Sequence record: GQ981382
Direction: 5' to 3' (one strand)
DNA: 64,000 nt
Source of the DNA: Shigella phage SP18
This document shows positions 25,731-38,466 of the stretch, in pieces (position 1 is the first letter of the stretch; the number at the start of each line of letters is the position of its first letter). A program made the position numbers and the translations under genes. The notes under the pieces were generated by a model. That model saw only the letters and a list, made by a program, of their open reading frames with translations. It was not told the origin of the DNA and ran no database searches.

Positions 25731-26030
25731 TTAGAAAGAACCAGAGCCTTTAATTGTGTTCTGGCGACCTTTATTTTCTAATTCAGAATGGTCAATTTCA
25801 TATGCTTGTGCTACACCAAAAGCCTTTTTAACTTTAGCTAAAGAACCTTTAGATGTAACAATATTAAAAGTATTACCTTTGGTAAAATCAACCAAATCCA
25901 CTTGTACACCTTGTTTACCGAGGCTTGCGACAATAGCATCAACATATTGTTGGTCTAAATTGCCCTGGACTCCAATTTGGAATGCTTTAGGAGCTTTAGC
26001 TTCTGTGATAAATTCTTGATAAGTTTTCAT
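25731..26030 (-). CDS. Internal-protein-like capsid-targeted protein (MKTYQEFITE N-terminus)
   Basis: N-terminus MKTYQEFITEAK matches the T4 IPI/IPII/IPIII capsid targeting sequence with a protease-type ITE site. Confidence 0.7.
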   Translation of the reverse strand: MKTYQEFITEAKAPKAFQIGVQGNLDQQYVDAIVASLGKQGVQVDLVDFTKGNTFNIVTSKGSLAKVKKAFGVAQAYEIDHSELENKGRQNTIKGSGSF

Positions 26031-26038
26031 TTATTCTC

Positions 26039-26078
26039 TCCAAGTTGATGGGATAATTATGCACTATCCCATCAAAAA
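26039..26078 (-). promoter_or_regulatory. Early-promoter/stem-loop cassette (PeSL-like)
   Basis: 9-bp inverted repeat gatgggata/tatcccatc with minus-sense TATAAT-like loop. Confidence 0.45.
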
Positions 26079-26086
26079 GTAAACAG

Positions 26087-26350
26087 TTATGCTTTACCGC
26101 CAGAAACAATACCAAAGGTCTCAAAGTCCCATTCAATATCGTCAACATCAACTTTCTTACCAGCAACCACGAATGCGATTTCGCGACGTTTTGCATAGGT
26201 GACAATTTCTTTACCGTCACCACCAAAGAAAGAATAACCATTGCGCTTCATGGTGCCAAAGTCTTCAGCATCACCAGCAAACGCGCGGACTTTAAAGGAA
26301 CCGGCAGGAGCTTTAGTAGATTCAGTAATAAATTCTTGATAAGTTTTCAT
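26087..26350 (-). CDS. Internal-protein-like capsid-targeted protein
   Basis: N-terminus MKTYQEFITESTKA. Confidence 0.7.
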   Translation of the reverse strand: MKTYQEFITESTKAPAGSFKVRAFAGDAEDFGTMKRNGYSFFGGDGKEIVTYAKRREIAFVVAGKKVDVDDIEWDFETFGIVSGGKA

Positions 26351-26363
26351 AATGTCTCTTTAA

Positions 26364-26678
26364 TTACTCTTTAGGGAAATCGCGCAAAAACGCATCATAA
26401 AGTTTATTACCAATGCGACGGAATGCTTTTGCCGCATGAACGTTATCCGGATTTGCAATTTTAATTTGCATTACATGACTACCGGCCCATGATTTGGCTT
26501 CATCATAATAGCCTTTAATTTCTTTAATAGTCTTACGTTTTCCGCCAGGACCATCAACAGTAATTTTCCACGAACCGGTGCTTGTTTCACTTGGTGGGGT
26601 TAATTGTTCAATCCAGACATAACCGCCTTCAACACGTTTTTGGGTAGATTCAGTAATAAATTCTTGATAAGTTTTCAT
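26364..26678 (-). CDS. Internal-protein-like capsid-targeted protein
   Basis: Start moved to internal Met giving MKTYQEFITESTQ; conserved leader DNA cagtaataaattcttgataagttttcat. Confidence 0.65.
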   Translation of the reverse strand: MKTYQEFITESTQKRVEGGYVWIEQLTPPSETSTGSWKITVDGPGGKRKTIKEIKGYYDEAKSWAGSHVMQIKIANPDNVHAAKAFRRIGNKLYDAFLRDFPKE

Positions 26679-28172: not shown

Positions 28173-28401
28173 CGTCTCGTTTCCATGATTGGTTAAAAAT
28201 ATCGCTCATTAAAAATTCAAGTCTATTTTCCAATGAAGGGCTTTCACTATCAGAAACTTGAATCATATAATCAGAAATAGGTCGGAACATATCCAAGTCG
28301 CTTTCTAAATCTTCTTTGATTTTCTCTTCTGATGTTCCGGTGTCATAGGAATACAGATAAGAATCACACGACTCAGATTTAATATAAATTGCAATACTCA
28401 T
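28165..28401 (-). CDS. Hypothetical acidic protein (78 aa)
   Basis: ORF track. Confidence 0.45.
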   Translation of the reverse strand: MSIAIYIKSESCDSYLYSYDTGTSEEKIKEDLESDLDMFRPISDYMIQVSDSESPSLENRLEFLMSDIFNQSWKRDDE

Positions 28402-28982
28402 TTACGGCATTCCTCAATAAAAGAATTTAATGTATTTTTCTTAGCGATATCGTCGTATACCTTTTTAACTTTAGAAATACGAAAAGGTACTTCAATAGTC
28501 ATAGTCCATAAAAATGATGCAATAAGTCCAACAGCAGCAGAAGAAATGCACGCGCCCATTACAGCCACAGGCGCTTCATTTTTACCTGTCAGGAAAAACC
28601 ACAGGATTGGTAAAAATAAGATTCCAGACCAAGCATAAAACCTGGAACAAATTAACTTATCAAATTCATCTTTCCAGGTACGAAATCCATATTTCTTGCT
28701 ATAAGAAATTAATGGGTCGGGCGTCTGTTCTTTGAGTGGTTCTGGTTGATACCCATTAATGATGTATCCCATTTTATATTCCTTAATTAAAAGCTCTTTC
28801 ACATGACGATTGCATCGCGACCAATCAACATTTTCCACCTTGATTCCTTCATCACCATCATCAAGGTTCGCCCAATATTTTTTGGTAATCATAAATTCAT
28901 CTCTTGATACAATTATACCTGCATTTTCTGCCCGACGGATGAAGTTTACATCAACACCCATACAACCAGGTTCATACAGCAT
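28398..28982 (-). CDS. Membrane protein with C-terminal FIEEC motif (194 aa)
   Basis: Two hydrophobic helices; C-terminal NSFIEECRK shared with other ORFs in the window. Confidence 0.5.
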   Translation of the reverse strand: MLYEPGCMGVDVNFIRRAENAGIIVSRDEFMITKKYWANLDDGDEGIKVENVDWSRCNRHVKELLIKEYKMGYIINGYQPEPLKEQTPDPLISYSKKYGFRTWKDEFDKLICSRFYAWSGILFLPILWFFLTGKNEAPVAVMGACISSAAVGLIASFLWTMTIEVPFRISKVKKVYDDIAKKNTLNSFIEECRK

Positions 28983-29667
28983 TACCAGCCCTCCATAGGA
29001 AATTCCAGATATACTTGAGCATTAACGCGGATTTCATTGGTGATTTTATTAACGCGGTCAGTTTTACGAGATACACGACCAAACCAGCGCCAACCATTAC
29101 CAACTGTTTTTGTTCCAGTATGCCAGGTCTGCCAGTTGAATTCACACAACGTGCGGTCAGGAGCTTCTTGAACTAAAAGTTCACCCGCCTTGATTTTTTC
29201 CAGAACTTCCTGGTGCCACTGGCGATAGATAAGTTCGCCATCAGGAATCTGACTGAATTCTGAAGTTCCCAGAGCAAAATGAGTAGGGCAAACAGAAGCG
29301 TTAACCAGACCCAGGATGTGTTCAGAATGGTAACGAGGGTTATCATAATCAGGTTGTCCTGCTGTAATAAAATGTTGTCCTGCTGGAATATCTGGACGTG
29401 GTACATCATCATGGTGATACCCAGGGATAGCAGGATACCAACCAGGCATCAACATATGGACGCGAGAGTCAAATACAACATCACGATTGGTCCAGTCCAG
29501 TGGTAATGCAGCAATAAAGCTACGGGTAATTAAACCGCCTTTATCCCAGGCAAAACTTAAATCACAATTAAAGAACATCGGTTCATTTTTGATTTCGTCA
29601 TTACTGACATATTGAGCAAATTGACCAACTTCACGCATTTGACTATTAAAAGTTTTTGAGCTATTCA
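28982..29667 (-). CDS. Hypothetical protein (about 228 aa from internal Met)
   Basis: Track ORF 28982-29806 trimmed to the MNSSKTF Met so it does not overlap the upstream ORF. Confidence 0.5.
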
Positions 29668-29678
29668 TGATATTTTCC

Positions 29679-29903
29679 TCAGTATTCTTCATCATATTCA
29701 AAGTCTTCATCAAACTCGGGTTCCAGAGAAATTTCTTCTTCTGGGTGGAATTCACAAGGGAAATATTCCACTTCACCACAATCGGCGTCATAGGACTGGA
29801 AATCAATTTGGATTACGGTTTCGGATACAACAATAACTTCAGCAACCAAGTCACCTGCAATTTCCATTCCAACTTTAACATCTTTAGCTTTGATAGTATT
29901 CAT
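29679..29903 (-). CDS. Hypothetical acidic protein
   Basis: Start set at MNTIKAKDV Met preceded by GGAGAATAAA; promoter cassette upstream. Confidence 0.45.
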   Translation of the reverse strand: MNTIKAKDVKVGMEIAGDLVAEVIVVSETVIQIDFQSYDADCGEVEYFPCEFHPEEEISLEPEFDEDFEYDEEY

Positions 29904-29968
29904 TTTATTCTCCAATTTGGTAACTCAGTATGGAATCATTATGCACTGACTCCATACTGATGTACACA
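29904..29968 (-). promoter_or_regulatory. Early-promoter/stem-loop cassette (PeSL-like)
   Basis: ttttattctcc...ggtaactcagtatggaatcattatgcac...gatgtacacac. Confidence 0.45.
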
Positions 29969-29969
29969 C

Positions 29970-30929
29970 TTATTTTGTGAAAGGACGAATTAAATGTTGG
30001 TTAGCCTTAAAGCGTTTAACATAGTCTTCGCGCCCCAGGGTGTTGTACATATTAACCACTTCCTGGTAATGTTCCCAGGCATACTCACGGAACCATCCAG
30101 ACGTAATGGAGGTGCAGACTTTTTCCAGCGCAATATGGAAGCTCACAGATGGAGAGATATTGAACTCATTAGGAACCTGCGAACGCTCCAGAGCGAGCAC
30201 ACATGCTTCTTCATAAACCCCTGCCAGTTTAATAACATCAGGGAGCGCTTCAAATTTTTCACGCGAGGTCATGACTTCTGAATCATCCTTCATATAGAAC
30301 TTATATGCAGGCTTATCAGCAAGCGCCACGGCCTCGTGGATGGAGTCATGGTCAAGGGTATAGATTGTATCATTAAAGAAAGTTTTCTTGCCCACGTCTA
30401 GTTTAGGGTGACTGTATGACAGTGTTTCTGTCTGACGATGCAGCATGATTTTCTGCAGTTCATCATTAAGAACAATACCCTTATTGCGAAGGTAATTAAT
30501 ATGACTCATGGTCTTCAGGAAGAATGGATTGTTCTTCAGGTAACGATGAGACAATTTGATTGCCAAACAAATATCAGGGGTCGCCCAGTAAAAACCAGAT
30601 AGACGGTCTCTCTGAATATTTGCCTTCGCATATTTGAGCAGACGATAACTGGAGGTAAAATCTTCGTCTTGAAGCTCATCAGTCAACTCACGAACACTTG
30701 TCAGTGCGCGGACGATGTACGCTTCAAAATAGGTTTCTTTACCATTGTGCATACATTTAAAAGCTTGAACATCTGGGTTATCCACATGCACGTGCTGCCC
30801 CATCATCTGGGTTTTAAAACTGTTCCAAGAACCCTGGTCAGCGATAAAGTCCCAATCAGAGTTTTCAATTTTCTGACTTTCAATCAGACCAGCGTTATGT
30901 AATGCACGAGAACCAATAACTAACATCAT
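29970..30929 (-). CDS. Hypothetical protein (319 aa), possible nucleotidyltransferase-like N-terminus
   Basis: N-terminal VIGSRAL...SDWDF loosely resembles GS...DxD; otherwise unrecognised. Confidence 0.5.
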   Translation of the reverse strand: MMLVIGSRALHNAGLIESQKIENSDWDFIADQGSWNSFKTQMMGQHVHVDNPDVQAFKCMHNGKETYFEAYIVRALTSVRELTDELQDEDFTSSYRLLKYAKANIQRDRLSGFYWATPDICLAIKLSHRYLKNNPFFLKTMSHINYLRNKGIVLNDELQKIMLHRQTETLSYSHPKLDVGKKTFFNDTIYTLDHDSIHEAVALADKPAYKFYMKDDSEVMTSREKFEALPDVIKLAGVYEEACVLALERSQVPNEFNISPSVSFHIALEKVCTSITSGWFREYAWEHYQEVVNMYNTLGREDYVKRFKANQHLIRPFTK

Positions 30930-30942
30930 AATATTTTCCTCA

Positions 30943-31110
30943 TTAGTAAAGACGAGTTACTTCATATTTTCCAAGTGCCGATTTTTTCGCTTCAATTCGT
31001 GAGGCAGCAAGATTGGCGGCCTCTAGTGAAGAAAATTGAACCACTTGAGAAGTATTCTGTCTTACTCCGCCTTGCGGGTGAGTGACAAAAACAATAAGAA
31101 CATTATACAT
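30943..31110 (-). CDS. Small hypothetical protein (about 55 aa)
   Basis: Hand-translated MYNVLIVFVTHPQGG...; coordinates approximate. Confidence 0.3.
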   Translation of the reverse strand: MYNVLIVFVTHPQGGVRQNTSQVVQFSSLEAANLAASRIEAKKSALGKYEVTRLY

Positions 31111-31120
31111 AATATTTTCC

Positions 31121-31321
31121 TCAAATAATACCGTATGCGTAAATATCTTTTTTAATGCAGGAAACTACTTCTTCCAGAGAATCACAAACACGTTCTGTGA
31201 CGCCTGCGTAATCACCACTGATGGTTACTTTAATGCCATCAGAAACTTCCTGGAGATTAACCTCCAGTTGGTTGACTTTGGCTTCGTTCAGAACTTTGAT
31301 TAATTCGTTTGCGATAGACAT
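31121..31321 (-). CDS. Hypothetical protein (66 aa)
   Basis: ORF track. Confidence 0.4.
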   Translation of the reverse strand: MSIANELIKVLNEAKVNQLEVNLQEVSDGIKVTISGDYAGVTERVCDSLEEVVSCIKKDIYAYGII

Positions 31322-31385
31322 TTTTATTCTCCTGTTCTGATAACGTGATTGTCATCAGTTGATAGGAGTATAGTAACACAGTTTT

Positions 31386-31730
31386 TTAGACTTGTATACT
31401 GCTTCTACAATATTCTAAAAATAATTTATCGTTGTCTACCTTATCCCAACGACGACAAGATGGATTCCAGACCAGAGCGTTGTCACCACAACCATTGAGT
31501 TTAAAATGGTCGTAGTACATAACTATATGCCTGGTTTCGTCACTGGAGAACCCCGGTATAGGTTCTCCGTGGGTGTGATACCTATGATGATGCATTGAGA
31601 GGTCGCATTTGTAAAACATCTCACGTTTACCGCGAACGAACAAGAAAGCTTGCCCATTCATATAGAATTCTTTATCTGTTTTCAAAAGATATTTGAATAC
31701 CGAATCTTTATGCATAATTCCTCCTACCAC
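31386..31730 (-). CDS. Hypothetical His/Cys-containing protein (114 aa)
   Basis: ORF track. Confidence 0.45.
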   Translation of the reverse strand: MVGGIMHKDSVFKYLLKTDKEFYMNGQAFLFVRGKREMFYKCDLSMHHHRYHTHGEPIPGFSSDETRHIVMYYDHFKLNGCGDNALVWNPSCRRWDKVDNDKLFLEYCRSSIQV

Positions 31731-31745
31731 ATCCTTGTGATTAAA

Positions 31746-31973
31746 TTATTTTCCTAACGAAATGCGAGTAGGTTTTTTACCGAAATATTCTTCATAGGAA
31801 CCATCTAAACGACCCGCTTTAGACCGACAATACGAATCATACTTTTTGTAATAAGTCAACTCGGTATTGTAACGTGGATGTCTATCAGCCATAATAATAC
31901 TTAACGGCCAACCTTTGGCGTAATCACGAAGACCATTTATTTTACGAATATATCTTTTCTTTAATTTTAACAT
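31746..31973 (-). CDS. Hypothetical basic protein (75 aa)
   Basis: ORF track. Confidence 0.4.
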   Translation of the reverse strand: MLKLKKRYIRKINGLRDYAKGWPLSIIMADRHPRYNTELTYYKKYDSYCRSKAGRLDGSYEEYFGKKPTRISLGK

Positions 31974-32200
31974 GAACTTGGGTACCAGATTTTACCATCG
32001 GCACTAGCAACGAAGGTGCGACCAGCTTCTTCCCCATAACAAGAGCTGTTCAACCAGTCTTCAAGACGGACTTCGCCGTCATAATCATCAAGCTCAACAC
32101 CAAAATCTTGAGCAGAAGCCATATCTTTTACTTTCTTATACAGTGCAGCCAGTTCAAGGGCGGCTTTTTCTAATTCAGCACGTTCAACAGCAGTAGTCAT
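31967..32200 (-). CDS. Small paralog family member, C-terminal ...WYPSSC
   Basis: 77 aa; ends GKIWYPSSC; one of five tandem paralogs. Confidence 0.5.
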   Translation of the reverse strand: MTTAVERAELEKAALELAALYKKVKDMASAQDFGVELDDYDGEVRLEDWLNSSCYGEEAGRTFVASADGKIWYPSSC

Positions 32201-32209
32201 TTTATCACC

Positions 32210-32437
32210 TTAGCAAGACATAGAGGAGTTAAACCAGAAACCTTTACCATCTGGGATACCGTAATCACCACGAATCCAGTCATACTCTTCGTATTCTGGA
32301 CAACCCGCAGGAATATATCGTTGAAGACTGTCAGCATACACATGAAAGTATTCACCAGTTTTATCGGCCAGTTGTTCACCTTCACAGATTAGTGCACGGA
32401 TTTGGTCTTCAATTTCTTTAACAGTTTTAGCAGTCAT
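32210..32437 (-). CDS. Small paralog family member, C-terminal ...FWFNSSMSC
   Basis: 75 aa; ends GKGFWFNSSMSC. Confidence 0.5.
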   Translation of the reverse strand: MTAKTVKEIEDQIRALICEGEQLADKTGEYFHVYADSLQRYIPAGCPEYEEYDWIRGDYGIPDGKGFWFNSSMSC

Positions 32438-32446
32438 TTTATTTCC

Positions 32447-32644
32447 TTAGCATTCATAAGAGGAGGACACCCAGGAGCCACCCGTAATTGTAATACAGCC
32501 ATTGTAAATCGTGATATGACGGTCCAGATGGTTTTCACCTTCGATATAGATGTCGGCTTCTTCACGTTCTTCTTTACAAATCTGGATAACGTTTTCAATA
32601 GCTGCCGCGGCAGTACGGATTGCACAATCTAATTCACGAGACAT
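32447..32644 (-). CDS. Small paralog family member, C-terminal ...WVSSSYEC
   Basis: 65 aa; ends GGSWVSSSYEC. Confidence 0.5.
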   Translation of the reverse strand: MSRELDCAIRTAAAAIENVIQICKEEREEADIYIEGENHLDRHITIYNGCITITGGSWVSSSYEC

Positions 32645-32653
32645 AATAATTCC

Positions 32654-32935
32654 TTAACATTCAGAAGAGGAGGACACCCAACCACCTTTTTCCAGGTCAG
32701 TTGTATAGTCATGAGTATTAACAATAGCCCATTCAGGATGACCATGTTCTTCCCAATGGGCAAGGTCTGCTTTCAGGGCGCCAGGAGAATAATAGTCACC
32801 GCCCATACCGCGAGCAGGGTATATATTAAAATGAGTCTCATATTTGTCTGCAATTTCCTCGGCACGACGAATAGCTTTATGGATGTCATTTACTGCGTTA
32901 GCCAGTTCTTTATTTTTACGGTAATCATTCATCAT
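32654..32935 (-). CDS. Small paralog family member, C-terminal ...WVSSSSEC
   Basis: 93 aa; ends KGGWVSSSSEC. Confidence 0.5.
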   Translation of the reverse strand: MMNDYRKNKELANAVNDIHKAIRRAEEIADKYETHFNIYPARGMGGDYYSPGALKADLAHWEEHGHPEWAIVNTHDYTTDLEKGGWVSSSSEC

Positions 32936-32944
32936 AACGTTTCC

Positions 32945-33235
32945 TTAGCACATTGCCGAAGAGGAGACCCAAGCACCAACTGTAACGACACCGTTTTCAA
33001 CTTCACCGCCGTTGTTTTCAATTTCATTTTTAAACCACTGGGAGCATTCATAACCGACAGGATAATATGTACGGCCCGAACCATAATCACCGGTACCAAA
33101 TTGGATACCATATTCATCTGCGATTTCTTCACAGTGTTTTTCAATTTCAGAGGTCTTATTTAGAAGAGAATAGATAGCTTTTTCTGCAGATTTCTCATCA
33201 TAATACTTGGGGATAGCAATTTCAATTTTATTCAT
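32945..33235 (-). CDS. Small paralog family member, C-terminal ...WVSSSAMC
   Basis: 96 aa; ends VGAWVSSSAMC. Confidence 0.5.
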   Translation of the reverse strand: MNKIEIAIPKYYDEKSAEKAIYSLLNKTSEIEKHCEEIADEYGIQFGTGDYGSGRTYYPVGYECSQWFKNEIENNGGEVENGVVTVGAWVSSSAMC

Positions 33236-33585
33236 GATTTACATTCCTTAATAAAGGTTTCAAGTTCATTGCGTTTTGTTTTGTCTAGGAACTTATTATA
33301 CTCAGCCATTGCTGAAGCATATCTCTTCCGACTAGGAGCATTCACGGCATTTGTGTGACAGATATCATACACAACAGGGATAAAATAAGACACAACAGCC
33401 GGAGCGATTATCATAAAGAAGCCCATCTCAATAGGCATCACTCCCTCGATTGCAGCCATAACCGTGGTCATTACCAGACCAACCAGGCCGCCAAGCATGG
33501 CGGTGACAATCCCTAATAATAAATTGGCACCAATATCATATTCAGCCAATTGATAAACATGTGATGCAAGACTAGGCCGTTCCAT
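33232..33585 (-). CDS. Membrane protein with C-terminal FIKEC motif
   Basis: Start moved to the MERPSLASHV Met; hydrophobic helices; C-terminal ETFIKECKS. Confidence 0.45.
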   Translation of the reverse strand: MERPSLASHVYQLAEYDIGANLLLGIVTAMLGGLVGLVMTTVMAAIEGVMPIEMGFFMIIAPAVVSYFIPVVYDICHTNAVNAPSRKRYASAMAEYNKFLDKTKRNELETFIKECKS

Positions 33586-33967
33586 TACGAACCTCCTTAA
33601 TAAATTCTTCGGCGCATTTAATTTTGTGCTCTTCTTGTAGGGAAACACATTTTTGTTCCCACTCTTTAACTCGTCCACGATATCCTTTATTCATATGATT
33701 TTGATGCCACACATTTATCAATATCATACACAGGACCGTAATAAAAGGAGCTGCAATTACTAGCGTCCAGGCGACTCCAACACTAATGATATTCATATCC
33801 CCACAAAGCACCATCATTATAACCCCAACGATGCACATGGACAGAGCCCCAAATGGAGGCATAAGGTCTTTATCAATCTTGTCCGCGTACACAAATTTTT
33901 CTGGTTTACTTGGCAGATATAACGTTCGCATTTTGAACCCCTTTAGCATATTCACGACATTCAGCAA
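33572..33967 (-). CDS. Membrane protein (131 aa; start uncertain)
   Basis: Two hydrophobic helices; C-terminal EEFIKEV. Confidence 0.45.
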   Translation of the reverse strand: MLNVVNMLKGFKMRTLYLPSKPEKFVYADKIDKDLMPPFGALSMCIVGVIMMVLCGDMNIISVGVAWTLVIAAPFITVLCMILINVWHQNHMNKGYRGRVKEWEQKCVSLQEEHKIKCAEEFIKEVRNGTA

Positions 33968-34460
33968 TAAAACGATTAAGCTTACGTTTCCGTTTACGAC
34001 TCTCTAATGTGTACTCAGCCGCCAAATCAAGAAGCTCATCTTTATCATAATTTTTAATATCAGTATAAGTTGGACGACGGTCAACCATTCCAAAGTGGTC
34101 ACCATTTTCTAACATCAAATAACATACCAAATGGTCATCATCATCCGCATTAATAAGTTGTTTATAATCGCTAGGGTCGTTTAAAGCATATACTGAATAA
34201 CTCAGCCCAGCGAATTCCACTCGTTGAATACCCAGATTTACGTCAATAATTTCCAGGGCATCTGTGAAAGAAAGGTCTTCAGCTAAAGCAAAAATAAAAG
34301 GCAATTTTGTAGTATCACCGCGGCTAGTTGTTCTTCTTAAGAAATCATTGGAATAACCCAAGTCACCGCGGATTCTATAAAGAACTGTGTTAGTTTCAGT
34401 GGCAAGACCACTACCGCCAAACCAGTCTACATTTGATAGAAGGTCAGTATATAAGCTCAT
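33906..34460 (-). CDS. Hypothetical protein with C-terminal FIAEC motif
   Basis: Start at the MSLYTDLL Met (ATG 34460); C-terminal RKRKRKLNRFIAECRE. Confidence 0.5.
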   Translation of the reverse strand: MSLYTDLLSNVDWFGGSGLATETNTVLYRIRGDLGYSNDFLRRTTSRGDTTKLPFIFALAEDLSFTDALEIIDVNLGIQRVEFAGLSYSVYALNDPSDYKQLINADDDDHLVCYLMLENGDHFGMVDRRPTYTDIKNYDKDELLDLAAEYTLESRKRKRKLNRFIAECREYAKGVQNANVISAK

Positions 34461-34503
34461 AATATTCTCCTCTCCCAATTAGGGGGCAAAGCCCCCTTTT
34501 ATC

Positions 34504-35097
34504 TTACTTAAGCGAATTGATATATTCTTCAATGTCAGCGGACGTGGTATCCACACCAACCTGTGGGCCTTTGAAGGTTTCAACACGCATCAGAGTGTCT
34601 TCAATATCAATCTTAGTCAATGCAGCGATTTCAACAACATCATCTGCGGTTGCAATACCCAGTGCAGACACCTTACGGGTTTCGCGGATGTATTCCAGTT
34701 TAACAGCTAGTTCCTGACGAGAGTCATCCAGCTCTTTAACTTTCAATTTAATTTCATTACGCATTTCAACATAATCATCTGCCTTCTTACGAAGTTGTTT
34801 AGCAGTGCGACGATACAGGAGACCCAGTTTAGCATGGACCTGGACATCTGCACCATCAGCAATCAGTTTTCGGATTTCACGCTCTTTTGAAGCGGCGAGC
34901 TGGTCTTTTTCATTCGCTAACTCGCGGATGCGTTTTTCTTCATTAACAGACTTAACGTGGGCAGTCTGGAGCTCAGTAATCTTATCAATCAGGGTAGAAG
35001 CAGCTTTAGTATATTGGTCTTCAATAGACAGGTTTTGCGCCATTGCAGTACCCAGTTTGGAGCGGATGAATTCAACAAGTTTCTTTAAAGTATTCAT
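34504..35097 (-). CDS. Coiled-coil protein (197 aa)
   Basis: Heptad-rich, Glu/Lys/Arg-rich sequence throughout. Confidence 0.5.
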
Positions 35098-35169
35098 GGT
35101 ATTTCCTTCAGTTAGTTAATGTTTTATTATCCCGGGAACATACTATCATGTTCCCGTTAAAGCACTAAT

Positions 35170-35475
35170 TTAGATTTTGTTTTCCTGCACACCATAATAA
35201 AGTTCATCAGACACAATATCCAGGATGCGGCGAACATATTCATCATGGTATTGACAGTCAAAATCAAATGTAACAGTAGTTTCCGCTTCACGAGTGAATT
35301 TAACTTGCACATTCAGGTGATTAACAACGTTAGTTAATTTATCAGTAAAGAACTCTTTTGCTACCGCCTGTTGGACTTGCACTTTGAACTTGGTGTTACG
35401 AATCATATTTTCAGCAGATGCGAAATTACCAGTTTTATCAAAGTCAACAAGCGCCATGTTGATGATGAATTTCAT
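35170..35475 (-). CDS. Hypothetical protein (101 aa)
   Basis: ORF track; ATG at 35475 after GGAGAATAAA. Confidence 0.5.
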   Translation of the reverse strand: MKFIINMALVDFDKTGNFASAENMIRNTKFKVQVQQAVAKEFFTDKLTNVVNHLNVQVKFTREAETTVTFDFDCQYHDEYVRRILDIVSDELYYGVQENKI

Positions 35476-35556
35476 TTTATTCTCCAGTGTTTTATTGTGT
35501 AACTCAGTATGGAATCATTATGCCTTAAAGCAGGGGGCTTGTATACCCCCTTTTTG
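35476..35556 (-). promoter_or_regulatory. Early-promoter/stem-loop cassette (PeSL-like) with gggg/cccc hairpin
   Basis: ttttattctcc...gtaactcagtatggaatcattatgcc...cagggggcttgtataccccctttttg. Confidence 0.45.
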
Positions 35557-35558
35557 AA

Positions 35559-36002
35559 TTAAATTTCAAATTCTTTGCGGAAGTTGGAAGCATAAGACTG
35601 AACTGATGCTTTGTTGAATCCAAACTCACGCACAATCATATCAATAACAGCCCTACGAGCGGCACCATTAGACATATTGACAGTTTTGAACATATCATAG
35701 CATAAATCTTTGTTGCTCATACCGGAGCGTTTAGGTGTCTTACGTTCAGTTTTTGGTTCAGTCTTAGGAGTAGGTTTAACTTCTGGTTTAACCTGTCCAT
35801 CATTCAGACCTTTAAAAATTTTACCTGCCAGAGTTGCCAGTTTAGCAGCTTCGCCACGAGTGATACCAAATACTGCCGGGTTAAATGAAATACCTTCAGC
35901 TGTCAGACGTTTAAAGAACATACGTGCGGCGGATTGTGCTTCAGCTTCAGAAGAGTTGTTTAATGCCAGTTTAACATACTTAACCAGTTTTGAAGTTTTC
36001 AT
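35559..36002 (-). CDS. Hypothetical protein, paralog A with conserved C-terminal domain (...AARRAVIDMIV...VQSYASNFRK)
   Basis: Start at the MKTSKLVKY Met; C-terminal 50 aa closely similar to the 36086-36511 product. Confidence 0.55.
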   Translation of the reverse strand: MKTSKLVKYVKLALNNSSEAEAQSAARMFFKRLTAEGISFNPAVFGITRGEAAKLATLAGKIFKGLNDGQVKPEVKPTPKTEPKTERKTPKRSGMSNKDLCYDMFKTVNMSNGAARRAVIDMIVREFGFNKASVQSYASNFRKEFEI

Positions 36003-36060
36003 TTTATTATCCCGTTTGTTTATTTGGTAACTCAATATGGGATAATTATACACTATCCCA
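36003..36060 (-). promoter_or_regulatory. Early-promoter/stem-loop cassette (PeSL-like)
   Basis: ttttattatcccgtttgtttatttggtaactcaatatgggataattatacactatccc. Confidence 0.45.
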
Positions 36061-36085
36061 CCTGGAAGTAAAACACTTTTCTCAA

Positions 36086-36511
36086 TTATTTTTGAGCTTT
36101 GCGGAAGTTGGATGCATATGACTGAACAACAGTCTTTTTGATATCATGGGTGGTAACCAGAACATCAATCAGAGCGCGACGAGCTGCATTATCATTCATA
36201 TCAATTTCTGAAAATGCCTGGAAGCAAATGTCACGAGCGTTACCAGATTTGGACTGGATTTTTTCTTCTTTAACTTCTTCAATTGGGAATTCAATCATTT
36301 CAGCTTGGATTAATTCAATGATAGATTCTTTTGACTGTTTGGTGTTTACCTTCAGTTCAGAATTAAGGGACTTGGCGATGGCAACAATCTGGGTTGAAGT
36401 CAGATGAATAAGTGCATCTTCACGAATGCAGATTTCACATACTTCGTCAGCAACCATTTTGTTGGTGATGCGGGTAACAGAGAATGCAGAGGTCAGGGTC
36501 AGGAAGTTCAT
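36086..36511 (-). CDS. Hypothetical protein, paralog B with conserved C-terminal domain (...AARRALIDVLV...VQSYASNFRK)
   Basis: Start at the MNFLTLTSAF Met; shared C-terminal domain with paralog A. Confidence 0.55.
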   Translation of the reverse strand: MNFLTLTSAFSVTRITNKMVADEVCEICIREDALIHLTSTQIVAIAKSLNSELKVNTKQSKESIIELIQAEMIEFPIEEVKEEKIQSKSGNARDICFQAFSEIDMNDNAARRALIDVLVTTHDIKKTVVQSYASNFRKAQK

Positions 36512-36600
36512 TTTATTTCTCCAAAGTTTTGTTTGATTCAGTGTGTAACTCAGTATGGAATCATTATGCACCCGGTCAATTCGGATGTACACTACTTTTT
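36512..36600 (-). promoter_or_regulatory. Early-promoter/stem-loop cassette (PeSL-like)
   Basis: ttttatttctcc...gtgtaactcagtatggaatcattatgcac...gatgtacactac. Confidence 0.45.
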
Positions 36601-36628
36601 GAAGAAAATTTCAAATTTATTCGGGGTA

Positions 36629-36665: not shown

Positions 36666-36960
36666 TGTCGGGGTTCCACCTGCAAGGCAAGTGTTTGTAC
36701 GAAACGCCGGGATTCGAACCCGGTTATTAAGCAGTTGACGCTACTCAATATTTTTAAAAGGCCATATCTCGACCATATCCGAACGTTCCGTCAAAAACGC
36801 TACTCGGCTTACGGCAAAGATATTTCCTCGAATCGATAATTCGGTGCGCCGTTTCAGCTGTGAGATAAGGGACTTTAAGAGGTCAACTCATGTACGCCTT
36901 AAAGTCGGGTCTTATTCAGGGAACTTCAGTCCGACGACTTACCGGTAGCGACCCGGTTTC
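36666..36960 (-). ncRNA. Structured non-coding region with tRNA-like T-arm; candidate stable RNA(s) (T4 rnaC/rnaD-like position)
   Basis: About 290 nt without an ORF next to the tRNA cluster; minus-sense CCGGG-TTCGAAT-CCCGG T-arm at 36700-36724 but no canonical cloverleaf found by eye. Confidence 0.3.
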
Positions 36961-37200
36961 TCATTCAATTGTAATAGCTAATTTGACTTTAACAACCTTA
37001 TAATTGGAATCAAGGTCATTGAATTCCATAAAATTTGTTGCTAATCTGCGAGTCGGGAAACTTAGATATTTATTATGCTCAGGTGGAGCAGTTAATGCAA
37101 ACCATGGGACTTGTTTATCATTTTCATCAAACTCATCAAAGCTATAAACCAGCTCGTTGCTGGTTATATCCATAACTGCATATGATTCACTAATAACCAT
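36961..37200 (-). CDS. Hypothetical protein (79 aa)
   Basis: ORF track; between tRNA-Arg and the non-coding region. Confidence 0.4.
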   Translation of the reverse strand: MVISESYAVMDITSNELVYSFDEFDENDKQVPWFALTAPPEHNKYLSFPTRRLATNFMEFNDLDSNYKVVKVKLAITIE

Positions 37201-37214
37201 AATATCCTCAGTAA

Positions 37215-37290
37215 TTGGTCGAGACAGTAGGGATCGAACCTACGACCTAGGACTTAGAAGGTCCTTGCTCTTCCTTCTGAGCTATGCCTC
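37215..37290 (-). tRNA. tRNA-Arg (anticodon UCU)
   Basis: Minus-sense cloverleaf CGAGGCA...CTTCTAA...GTAGGTTCGATCCCTAC...TGTCTCGACCA; anticodon loop CU-UCU-AA. Confidence 0.8.
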
Positions 37291-37295
37291 GTAAT

Positions 37296-37369
37296 TTGCG
37301 GACACACATGGATTCGAACCATGGACCAATTGATTAACAGTCAACTGCTCTACCACTGAGCTATGCATC
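37296..37369 (-). tRNA. tRNA-Asn (anticodon GUU)
   Basis: Minus-sense GGATGCATAGCTCAGTGGTAGAGC...CTGTTAA...CATGGTTCGAATCCATG; anticodon GTT. Confidence 0.75.
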
Positions 37370-37373
37370 CAAA

Positions 37374-37448
37374 TTGGTGGCCCTTGCTGGTTTCGATCCA
37401 GCTACCTATCAGTTATGAGCTGACAGCTCTCCCATTGAGCTAAAGGGC
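37374..37448 (-). tRNA. tRNA with CAU anticodon (Met or lysidine-modified Ile)
   Basis: Minus-sense GGCCCTTTAGCTCAATGGGAGAGC...CTCATAA...GCTGGATCGAAACCAGC AAGGGCC ACCA; T-loop reads AUCGAAA. Confidence 0.75.
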
Positions 37449-37542
37449 CAATTCTATTATGAAAGGCTCTTTGAGGGAAGAACCTTTGGTAATAGAGGGT
37501 ACTTATTAATAATAACACATAACTCTTAAAGCATATTACTTG

Positions 37543-38187: not shown

Positions 38188-38466
38188 CTAAATTTTTGTA
38201 TATTGTCCAGCTTTAACTTTTTTCAGTTCACGAGGGCTTACCGCGTAAGTGAATGGAGCATTCCAGGAAGAACTGACTTTGTAACCTTTAGTCAACATCA
38301 TTGCTGAAACTTTCTTGTTATCAGGACCGTTTTCGCCTTTAACAAGAAACAACTCAAATGCGCCACCATCAACCGGTTTGGCCTTAACCATCAGATATCC
38401 TTTCAGGTCTTCCAGCATATCCGGGTGACTAATTGATTCGTTAATAAATTCTTGATAAGTTTTCAT
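38188..38466 (-). CDS. Internal-protein-like capsid-targeted protein
   Basis: N-terminus MKTYQEFINES. Confidence 0.7.
   Translation of the reverse strand: MKTYQEFINESISHPDMLEDLKGYLMVKAKPVDGGAFELFLVKGENGPDNKKVSAMMLTKGYKVSSSWNAPFTYAVSPRELKKVKAGQYTKI

Follow-up and report, generated by a model that had tools for sequence, protein, structure and literature searches.

Two recurring C-terminal modules in the e.6 region of the T4-like Shigella phage SP18: a short FIxECR tail and a predicted three-helix domain

Two recurring C-terminal modules were found in a 64,000-nucleotide stretch of the genome of Shigella phage SP18 (sequence record GQ981382), which is referred to here as the window and belongs to a T4-like phage of the genus Gaprivervirus. 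The first is a ten-residue tail with the core FIxECR, carried by four genes (A to D in Table 1) that lie downstream of the homologue of T4 gene e.6; the second is a C-terminal domain common to two adjacent genes, E and F, which are without a T4 counterpart and are placed between e.6 and the homologue of rnaC, a T4 small stable RNA. The two modules are separate, real, statistically significant and widely conserved. Neither has a described function, and the tail, together with its link to e.6, is the more novel part. As a joint reading, to which somewhat less than an even chance is given, the tail would be a shared docking or assembly helix, with e.6 as its best candidate partner, and the E/F domain would be a homeodomain-like binder of nucleic acid.

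Across all six reading frames of the 64 kb, the pattern F[IV]x[ED]C[RK] has just three matches, and these lie in A, B and D. Residue shuffles gave a mean of 0.19 matches in six frames and of 0.006 in the last 25 residues of open reading frame (ORF) segments of at least 80 amino acids, and none of 1000 shuffles reached three. The remaining loose matches to the tail motif in the window all fall in non-coding frames. With the wider pattern [LI]xxF[IV]xxC[RK], lying no more than about 25 residues from the stop codon in the run downstream of e.6, A, B and D are full members and C is a degenerate one. The initial annotation had placed FIxEC tails at the ends of these four proteins; all four are present and the motif is significant by shuffling, but that of D lies 15 residues short of the stop and so is not at the extreme end, and when gene C is aligned with T4 e.4 and with annotated orthologues, its most likely start is the ATG at 33931 rather than position 33967.

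Genes A, B and C are orthologues of T4 e.2, e.3 and e.4 by significant similarity and by gene order downstream of e.6, and the order e.6, D, C, B is that of e.6, e.5, e.4 and e.3 in T4. T4 differs from SP18, in which a block of about 12 genes and 4.2 kb splits B from A. Gene D sits at the e.5 position, and BLASTP aligns it with T4 e.5 over the last 15 residues only (E = 9e-4); the bodies show no similarity, so that D is not counted as an e.5 orthologue and has only the tail in common with it. In the first 76 kb of T4, read in six frames, the only four tail matches were those of an e.2 remnant (…FITECRKLK), e.3, e.4 and e.5, with the sequences …FVIDCRKIK, …FVKESRCKSQS and …FVKECREYVK…, the e.4 tail being degenerate. 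At 67472-67960 (minus strand) of NC_000866, two in-frame stop codons shorten T4 e.2, and the same frame then runs on into the remnant, …IEMPWRLRRQQKIFDEKKYAQNLNNFITECRKLK and a stop, which is clearly homologous to the C-terminus of the full-length gene of the window (A) and of phage QL01. T4 e.2 therefore looks like a truncated gene or pseudogene.

With e.6 as an anchor (1109 phage records), its flanks were read in further genera, namely in the Dhakavirus phages dhabil and QL01, Mosigvirus JS09, Klebsiella phage Marfa, Serratia phage CHI14, Morganella phage MP1, Aeromonas phage 65 and RB43. At the loci read, the tail motif was found every time in the gene or genes immediately downstream of e.6. 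The 23 instances, from nine genera, gave the consensus [LI]xxF[IV]KECR[KE], in which Phe is kept in 23 of 23, Ile or Val in 22, Arg in 21, Cys in 19 and Glu in 17. In ORF395 of Aeromonas phage 65, the motif stands 24 codons ahead of the stop. A scan of IMG/VR with an alignment of D and e.5 returned close relatives only.

The tail genes overlap (by 26 nucleotides for D/C, 14 for C/B and 4 for B and its next gene) and read as a translationally coupled run, so the tail might be kept for nucleotide reasons, as the ribosome-binding site and start of the next coupled gene and perhaps as homology patches for shuffling, with the peptide as a by-product. In A, B and C, the next gene has its ribosome-binding site in the x-E codons (GAGGAA, AAGGAA and AAGGAG), the GAGGAA of A serving a gene with its ATG at 28401; in T4 e.2 and e.3 this site is AGGAAA in the C-R-K codons and in MP1 it is GGAGAA in the R-R codons. 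The Phe codon is TTT in all 15 tail instances that were read as DNA. Furthermore, the final residues of C, KEVRNGTA, are accounted for by overlap with the ribosome-binding site and start of B, and a similar ending, …KEVQNGTA, closes the D protein of Dhakavirus, which likewise overlaps the start of B and abuts B directly because e.4 is missing there. The D/B junction of dhabil and QL01 was observed to be identical to the C/B junction of the window at about 13 of 16 positions. Such a recurrence suggests that e.4 may have been gained or lost by recombination between two similar ribosome-binding-site regions, as expected if the tail DNA matters in itself. Nevertheless, the codons of the conserved residues vary: Arg is encoded by CGT, CGC, CGG, AGG and AGA, five codons from two unrelated codon families, Cys by both TGT and TGC, and Ile or Val by ATT, ATC, GTT and GTG, exchanges that are conservative for the protein and not for the DNA. 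The ribosome-binding site also moves within the motif and is absent from that of D, which ends 22 nucleotides before the next start; in Aeromonas ORF395 the motif stands well before the stop; and the codons for Phe, Ile/Val and Cys are not purine-rich, so that a ribosome-binding site cannot explain them. The varied Arg and Cys codons, the Ile/Val exchange and the shifting or absent ribosome-binding site argue for selection on the peptide. The tail is thus, by its codon usage, under purifying selection at the protein level, and the nucleotide explanation is improbable.

The bodies that carry the tail were called otherwise unrelated in the initial annotation, which applies to some pairs and not to others. 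In hhalign comparisons, only 18 columns, all in the tail, could be aligned between the A and B families (P = 1.4e-4), and only 13 between B and D (P = 1.2e-3), so A, B and D are alike in the tail alone; B and C, however, are related over 58 columns, from the second membrane helix through the tail (P = 1e-5). There are also cross-matches among the PHROG profiles: that of A, phrog_2203, matches residues 37-116 of B (E = 5e-4), and that of B, phrog_2330, matches C (E = 1e-3). A, B and C also have the same architecture: two hydrophobic helices, with no basic residues between them, and then a C-terminal stretch rich in Lys and Arg that is 31-47 residues long (31-57 by another count). The tails of A, B and C are predicted to be cytoplasmic because of the positive-inside rule, and the e.2, e.3 and e.4 types are predicted two-helix inner-membrane proteins with cytoplasmic C-termini. 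D and its positional counterparts are soluble, and soluble proteins with different bodies carry the tail in at least five genera. A chain of weak homology links the e.5 proteins of T4, JS09, Marfa and CHI14 but does not include D; the tail is all that D, the pairs of Aeromonas 65 and of MP1, and RB43 have in common with this chain.

The B/C alignment, the PHROG cross-matches and the identical architecture of A, B and C are what would be seen if the tail were a relic of common descent, in which e.2, e.3 and e.4 arose by tandem duplication of a two-helix membrane gene, the tail being a structural, membrane-proximal helix without a shared partner, and e.5 gained it by fusion. Such a history is considered unlikely. 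The tail is the best-conserved part while the bodies have diverged beyond recognition, down to the 18 columns of A/B and the 13 of D/B; the soluble carriers have different bodies; and a neutral relic would have lost its Phe, Ile, Cys and Arg between Aeromonas phage 65 and T4.

The Leu, Phe, Ile/Val and Cys of the tail fall at i, i+3, i+4 and i+7 and make up a single helix face, with the Arg next to them. The preferred reading takes the tail as a candidate docking or assembly helix common to the run after e.6, which would gather the co-translated e.5-, e.4-, e.3- and e.2-type proteins at the inner membrane or on one common partner. The best candidate for this partner is e.6, because it is the invariant upstream neighbour of the tail genes and was found directly upstream of them at every locus and in every genus examined. 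The e.6 protein may resemble a diverged, membrane-associated protein of the Vipp1/PspA type. The three best PDB matches of a profile of eight e.6 homologues are all Vipp1/IM30 (E = 0.005-0.014), co-linear from 1-143 to 1-144, and the profile scores real Vipp1 at 21.1 bits, a value reached by none of 1000 heptad-preserving shuffles (-1.2 +/- 2.1, maximum 11.2). This points to e.6 as a possible phage PspA/Vipp1-like protein.

Several results weigh against this picture. The Pfam model PspA_IM30 (PF04012) matched none of the eight e.6 homologues at E<=1; the e.6 profile gave 0 bits against a sequence entered as E. coli PspA; and the PDB E-value of 0.005 comes with a high composition bias. The hydrophobic moment of the tail helices is only moderately unusual, in the top 2-15% of shuffles, and the AlphaFold2 model of D, built from 14 close homologues, has a predicted local distance difference test (pLDDT) score of 39, too low to be used for the structural setting of the tail. 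A docking role for the tail, with e.6 as its partner, is what we infer from the conservation and the gene order.

The arrangement would parallel the recruitment of PspA by the small membrane proteins PspB and PspC. The C-terminal part of PspC binds PspA, and in the phages a helical e.6 is likewise encoded beside small inner-membrane proteins with predicted cytoplasmic C-terminal helices. The systems differ in that e.6 is not matched by the PspA Pfam model, that sequence similarity between PspB or PspC and the phage tails was not demonstrated, and that Psp has no counterpart of the soluble, tail-bearing e.5 type, so that the link to Psp is an analogy and not membership. A bolder proposal, considered improbable, would make e.6 a phage member of the PspA/Vipp1 (ESCRT-III-type) membrane-remodelling proteins and the FIxECR tails its inner-membrane adaptors; the whole would be a Psp-like membrane-maintenance module conserved across the T4 superfamily, in which the variable bodies could be exchanged as sensors or effectors. 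Nothing relevant on phage-encoded PspA or ESCRT-III was found in the literature searched.

A last alternative for the tail starts from the head. The prohead protease cuts after (L/I)-x-E, and T4 head assembly starts at the inner membrane; the tail might then mimic the T4 capsid-targeting sequence or protease site and either target or tether its carriers to the membrane-bound assembling head core or be cut after its Glu. The internal proteins of T4 and of the window start with MKTYQEFI(A/T/N)E (MKTYQEFIAE in T4), which has F-I-x-E in common with the tail. However, only these four residues are common, and F[IV]xE is frequent by chance; the targeting sequence is N-terminal, lacks the Cys and Arg that are among the most conserved residues of the tail, and shows its conservation among the genes for internal proteins at the DNA level; and the Glu is replaced in 6 of 23 tails. 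The resemblance is probably a coincidence, and this explanation is regarded as highly improbable. Four internal-protein genes of the window, at 25731-26678 and 38188-38466 (both minus strand), were observed to start with the capsid-targeting MKTYQEFI(T/N)E. The concept of the capsid-targeting sequence is described in PMC3012670.

The second module lies in E and F, which align over 73 residues with 42% identity (BLASTP E = 1e-17 with composition adjustment) and whose N-termini do not align, so that the common C-terminal domain behind unrelated N-termini, as first described, is borne out. The DNA encoding VQSYASNFRK is 94% identical between them over a 31-nucleotide stretch. The family is rare: tblastn found it in 44 phage records, a HMMER representative search in 15 representatives among 1.84 billion proteins, and the 58-residue domain, used by itself as the query of a word-indexed search for homologues, gave no matches. 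The domain is C-terminal in every case, behind at least three unrelated N-termini or alone in proteins of 69-74 amino acids. The N-termini are of the E type, KYINLALNNSSEGEA…, which may resemble the DUF2786 motif (one of eight E-type proteins matches DUF2786, PF10979, at E = 0.043, below threshold); of the F type, with strands and a helix-extension-helix that may be of the Rho_N or SAP-like kind; and of a third type in two proteins (P0020, P0023). Another protein, P0033, is a weak match (E = 7e-4) with tandem copies of a related stretch. Inside the 64-kb window there is no third copy of the domain. A stand-alone third copy was observed in Gapriverviruses, with 71 amino acids (phrog_17275), directly upstream of motA and about 74 kb from E and F (164306-164521 in phage VR25, NC_028925).

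E-type and F-type genes adjoin in Gaprivervirus, in Morganella phage MP1, in Erwinia phage RF1 and in metagenomic phage contigs of about 45 kb, and Acinetobacter phages have the F type only. In the contigs, the two types form a small, divergently oriented island, with promoter-like hexamers before each gene and a G+C-rich stem-loop after the F-type gene, as far as can be read from the sequence. The domain shuffling that had been proposed for the region is therefore supported by a domain found behind at least three unrelated N-termini and alone, but it is old and not local, since the E/F pair is kept in Morganella, Erwinia and metagenomic phages and the tails in T4, Aeromonas 65 and RB43. The suggestion of new families did not hold, because PHROGs already contains the clusters, with function unknown. 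A common interaction partner, also suggested there, is plausible, and for E and F it would probably be nucleic acid. E matches phrog_18416 (E = 1.5e-92) and F matches phrog_9997 (E = 2.4e-71) in full length, cross-matches between these two are confined to the C-terminal domain (5e-16), and the match to the stand-alone phrog_17275 covers positions 19-69 of 71; all three are annotated as of unknown function.

For F, an AlphaFold2 model from a 20-sequence alignment (mean pLDDT 85.6) has an N-domain of the strand-plus-helix type, which a disordered linker joins to three helices at the C-terminus. The predicted three-helix fold of the E/F domain is superposable on known homeodomain-like helix-turn-helix members, and its best structural neighbours are DNA-bound helix-turn-helix domains. 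The last helix is nearly invariant, VQSYASN[FY]RK, and the domain, like the tail, is regarded as under purifying selection at the protein level. The F-type and the E-type profile, each independently of the other, pick out the ATBF1 homeodomain (2da3), and they do so in one common register (top match E = 0.059, second match E = 0.34), pairing VVQSYASN(F/Y)RK with VVQVWFQNTRAR, so that the Asn and Arg fall on homeodomain positions 51 and 53. The PDB homeodomain profile matches (E = 0.059, 0.34 and 0.56; hhalign P = 0.01) are not significant alone. No curated helix-turn-helix or homeodomain family in Pfam or NCBIfam matched the domain; Foldseek of the F model found no significant match in the PDB and, among viral models, family members only, including the 71-residue stand-alone paralogue. 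The domain also differs from homeodomains in lacking the W48/F49 pair (Y-A instead) and in having an invariant Cys in helix 1. A three-helix, homeodomain-like fold is thus predicted, as a fold-level resemblance, and by this resemblance nucleic-acid binding is the most likely activity.

Instead of nucleic acid, the domain might bind a host protein that is itself conserved, such as a factor in transcription or replication. The last helix is almost invariant across Escherichia, Erwinia, Morganella and Acinetobacter phages, which would suit a target that hardly changes; proteins are frequent ligands of small three-helix bundles; and Foldseek gave no significant DNA-binding match. This reading is nevertheless judged unlikely. 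The nearest structural neighbours are, after all, DNA-bound domains, and both profiles put the Asn and Arg of SN(F/Y)RK on N51 and R53. As nucleic-acid binders, E and F would be early proteins that act on the same target through the last helix and differ in the action of their N-terminal domains.

Each gene had been described as standing behind its own promoter cassette, which holds for E, F and two other ORFs and fails for the tail genes, an overlapping coupled run without cassettes. Four copies of a repeat of 33-63 nucleotides with sigma-70-like hexamers precede F, E, ORF 35170-35475 and ORF 29679-29915; they are at least 88% identical over 33 nucleotides, and one includes a GGGGG…CCCCC stem-loop. 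The flanks of E and F fit the definition of promoter-early/stem-loop (PeSL) cassettes known from the hyperplastic regions of T4-type phages (Arbiol et al. 2010, PMC2839356): a repeated sigma-70-like early promoter, an adjacent stem-loop and an orphan ORF (ORFan) in a hyperplastic region. Cassettes of this kind, like those before E, F and the two other ORFs, would account for the mobility and expression of E and F but not for their shared protein domain.

All features are listed in Table 1. The minus strand carries every gene of the 28-37 kb stretch, which is 93-97% identical to Escherichia phages P479, 212 and EAWsc9 and whose T4 equivalent runs from the lysozyme gene e and nudE to the tRNA cluster.

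Table 1. Coordinates of the two modules, their genes and the associated cassettes in the window
Feature	Coordinates	Strand	Description and evidence
Gene A	28398-28982	-	194 amino acids; full-length T4 e.2 counterpart with an N-terminal soluble part, two hydrophobic helices and a basic C-terminal tail; BLASTP against T4 e.2 E = 2e-14 (residues 31-73, N-terminal half only); phrog_2203 'membrane protein' E = 2e-67; hydropathy and charge
Tail of A	28404-28430	-	LNSFIEECR; protein ends ...LNSFIEECRK (stop)
Gene B	33232-33585	-	117 amino acids; T4 e.3 counterpart, two membrane helices and tail; BLASTP E = 1e-9; phrog_2330; hydropathy
Tail of B	33238-33264	-	LETFIKECK; protein ends ...LETFIKECKS (stop)
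Gene C	33572-33931	-	119 amino acids; T4 e.4 counterpart, two membrane helices, degenerate tail; BLASTP E = 6e-16; phrog_2604
Tail of C	33587-33613	-	degenerate EEFIKEVR, no Cys (Val instead); protein ends ...EEFIKEVRNGTA (stop)
Gene D	33906-34460	-	184 amino acids, soluble (no hydrophobic segment); at the T4 e.5 position; phrog_8788
Tail of D	33954-33980	-	LNRFIAECR; protein ends ...LNRFIAECREYAKGVQNANVISAK (stop); 22 nucleotides upstream of the C start codon
e.6 homologue	34504-35097	-	197 amino acids, helical; 75% identity with T4 e.6
Stem-loop (35532-35551) and cassette	35494-35561	-	directly after the E stop; predicted driver of ORF 35170-35475
Gene E	35559-36002	-	147 amino acids; N-terminal helical part weakly resembling DUF2786, Lys/Pro-rich linker, predicted C-terminal three-helix domain; phrog_18416
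E C-terminal domain	35562-35732	-	residues 91-147; ...AARRAVID...VQSYASNFRK
Cassette upstream of E	36022-36072	-	TTTACT, 16 nucleotides, TATAAT; early-promoter type
Gene F	36086-36511	-	141 amino acids; strand-plus-helix N-domain (residues 1-78), linker, predicted C-terminal three-helix domain; phrog_9997
F C-terminal domain	36089-36262	-	residues 84-141; predicted helices 92-100, 108-122, 126-140
Cassette upstream of F	36540-36607	-	TTGACC, 16 nucleotides, CATACT; early-promoter type

Searches of Pfam, NCBIfam and PADLOC gave nothing significant for A to F, and B has a weak match to SieB (E = 0.13). The product names holin, VirB3, ubiquitinyl hydrolase and H15, given in one deposited record, found no support. 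No function is recorded for T4 e.2-e.5 in the annotations or in the literature searched (e.3/e.4/e.5, 'e-segB intergenic'). Between B and A, at 31967-33235 (minus strand), five tandem small genes of 65-96 amino acids have a second recurring tail with Cys as the final residue, which reads …G(G/A/S)WVSSSxxC, …FWFNSSMSC or …IWYPSSC before the stop; their junction DNA is repeated (repeat family D2), and in Marfa, CHI14 and JS09 the gene family is likewise found after the e.3-like gene. A perfect, G+C-rich hairpin at 34481-34497 (AGGGGGCAAAGCCCCCT) lies between e.6 and D and is not an obvious terminator, because the coding (minus) strand has no T-run. Between F and the tRNA genes are the homologue of T4 rnaC (36698-36836, minus strand, 98.6% identity over 139 nucleotides) and a partial homologue of rnaD (36843-36964, minus strand), neither of which was matched by Rfam models; the rnaC homologue also includes the repeat at 36701-36720, which resembles a tRNA without being one. 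The tRNA genes themselves are three, for Arg(tct), Asn(gtt) and Met(cat), and are located at 37216-37449 (minus strand).

In conclusion, T4 is among the best-studied viruses and yet its e.2-e.6 genes are without an assigned function. A ten-residue tail that is kept in consecutive genes from Aeromonas phage 65 to T4, while the bodies drift or are replaced, marks the tail as the functional core of these proteins and offers an experimental handle. If e.6 is truly Vipp1/PspA-like, this would suggest that the phage encodes a system of its own that acts on the inner membrane of the host. For E and F, the analysis gives a predicted fold and a likely activity to three PHROG families of unknown function, and describes an early module of two genes that is conserved and moves from one phage to another that is unrelated to it.

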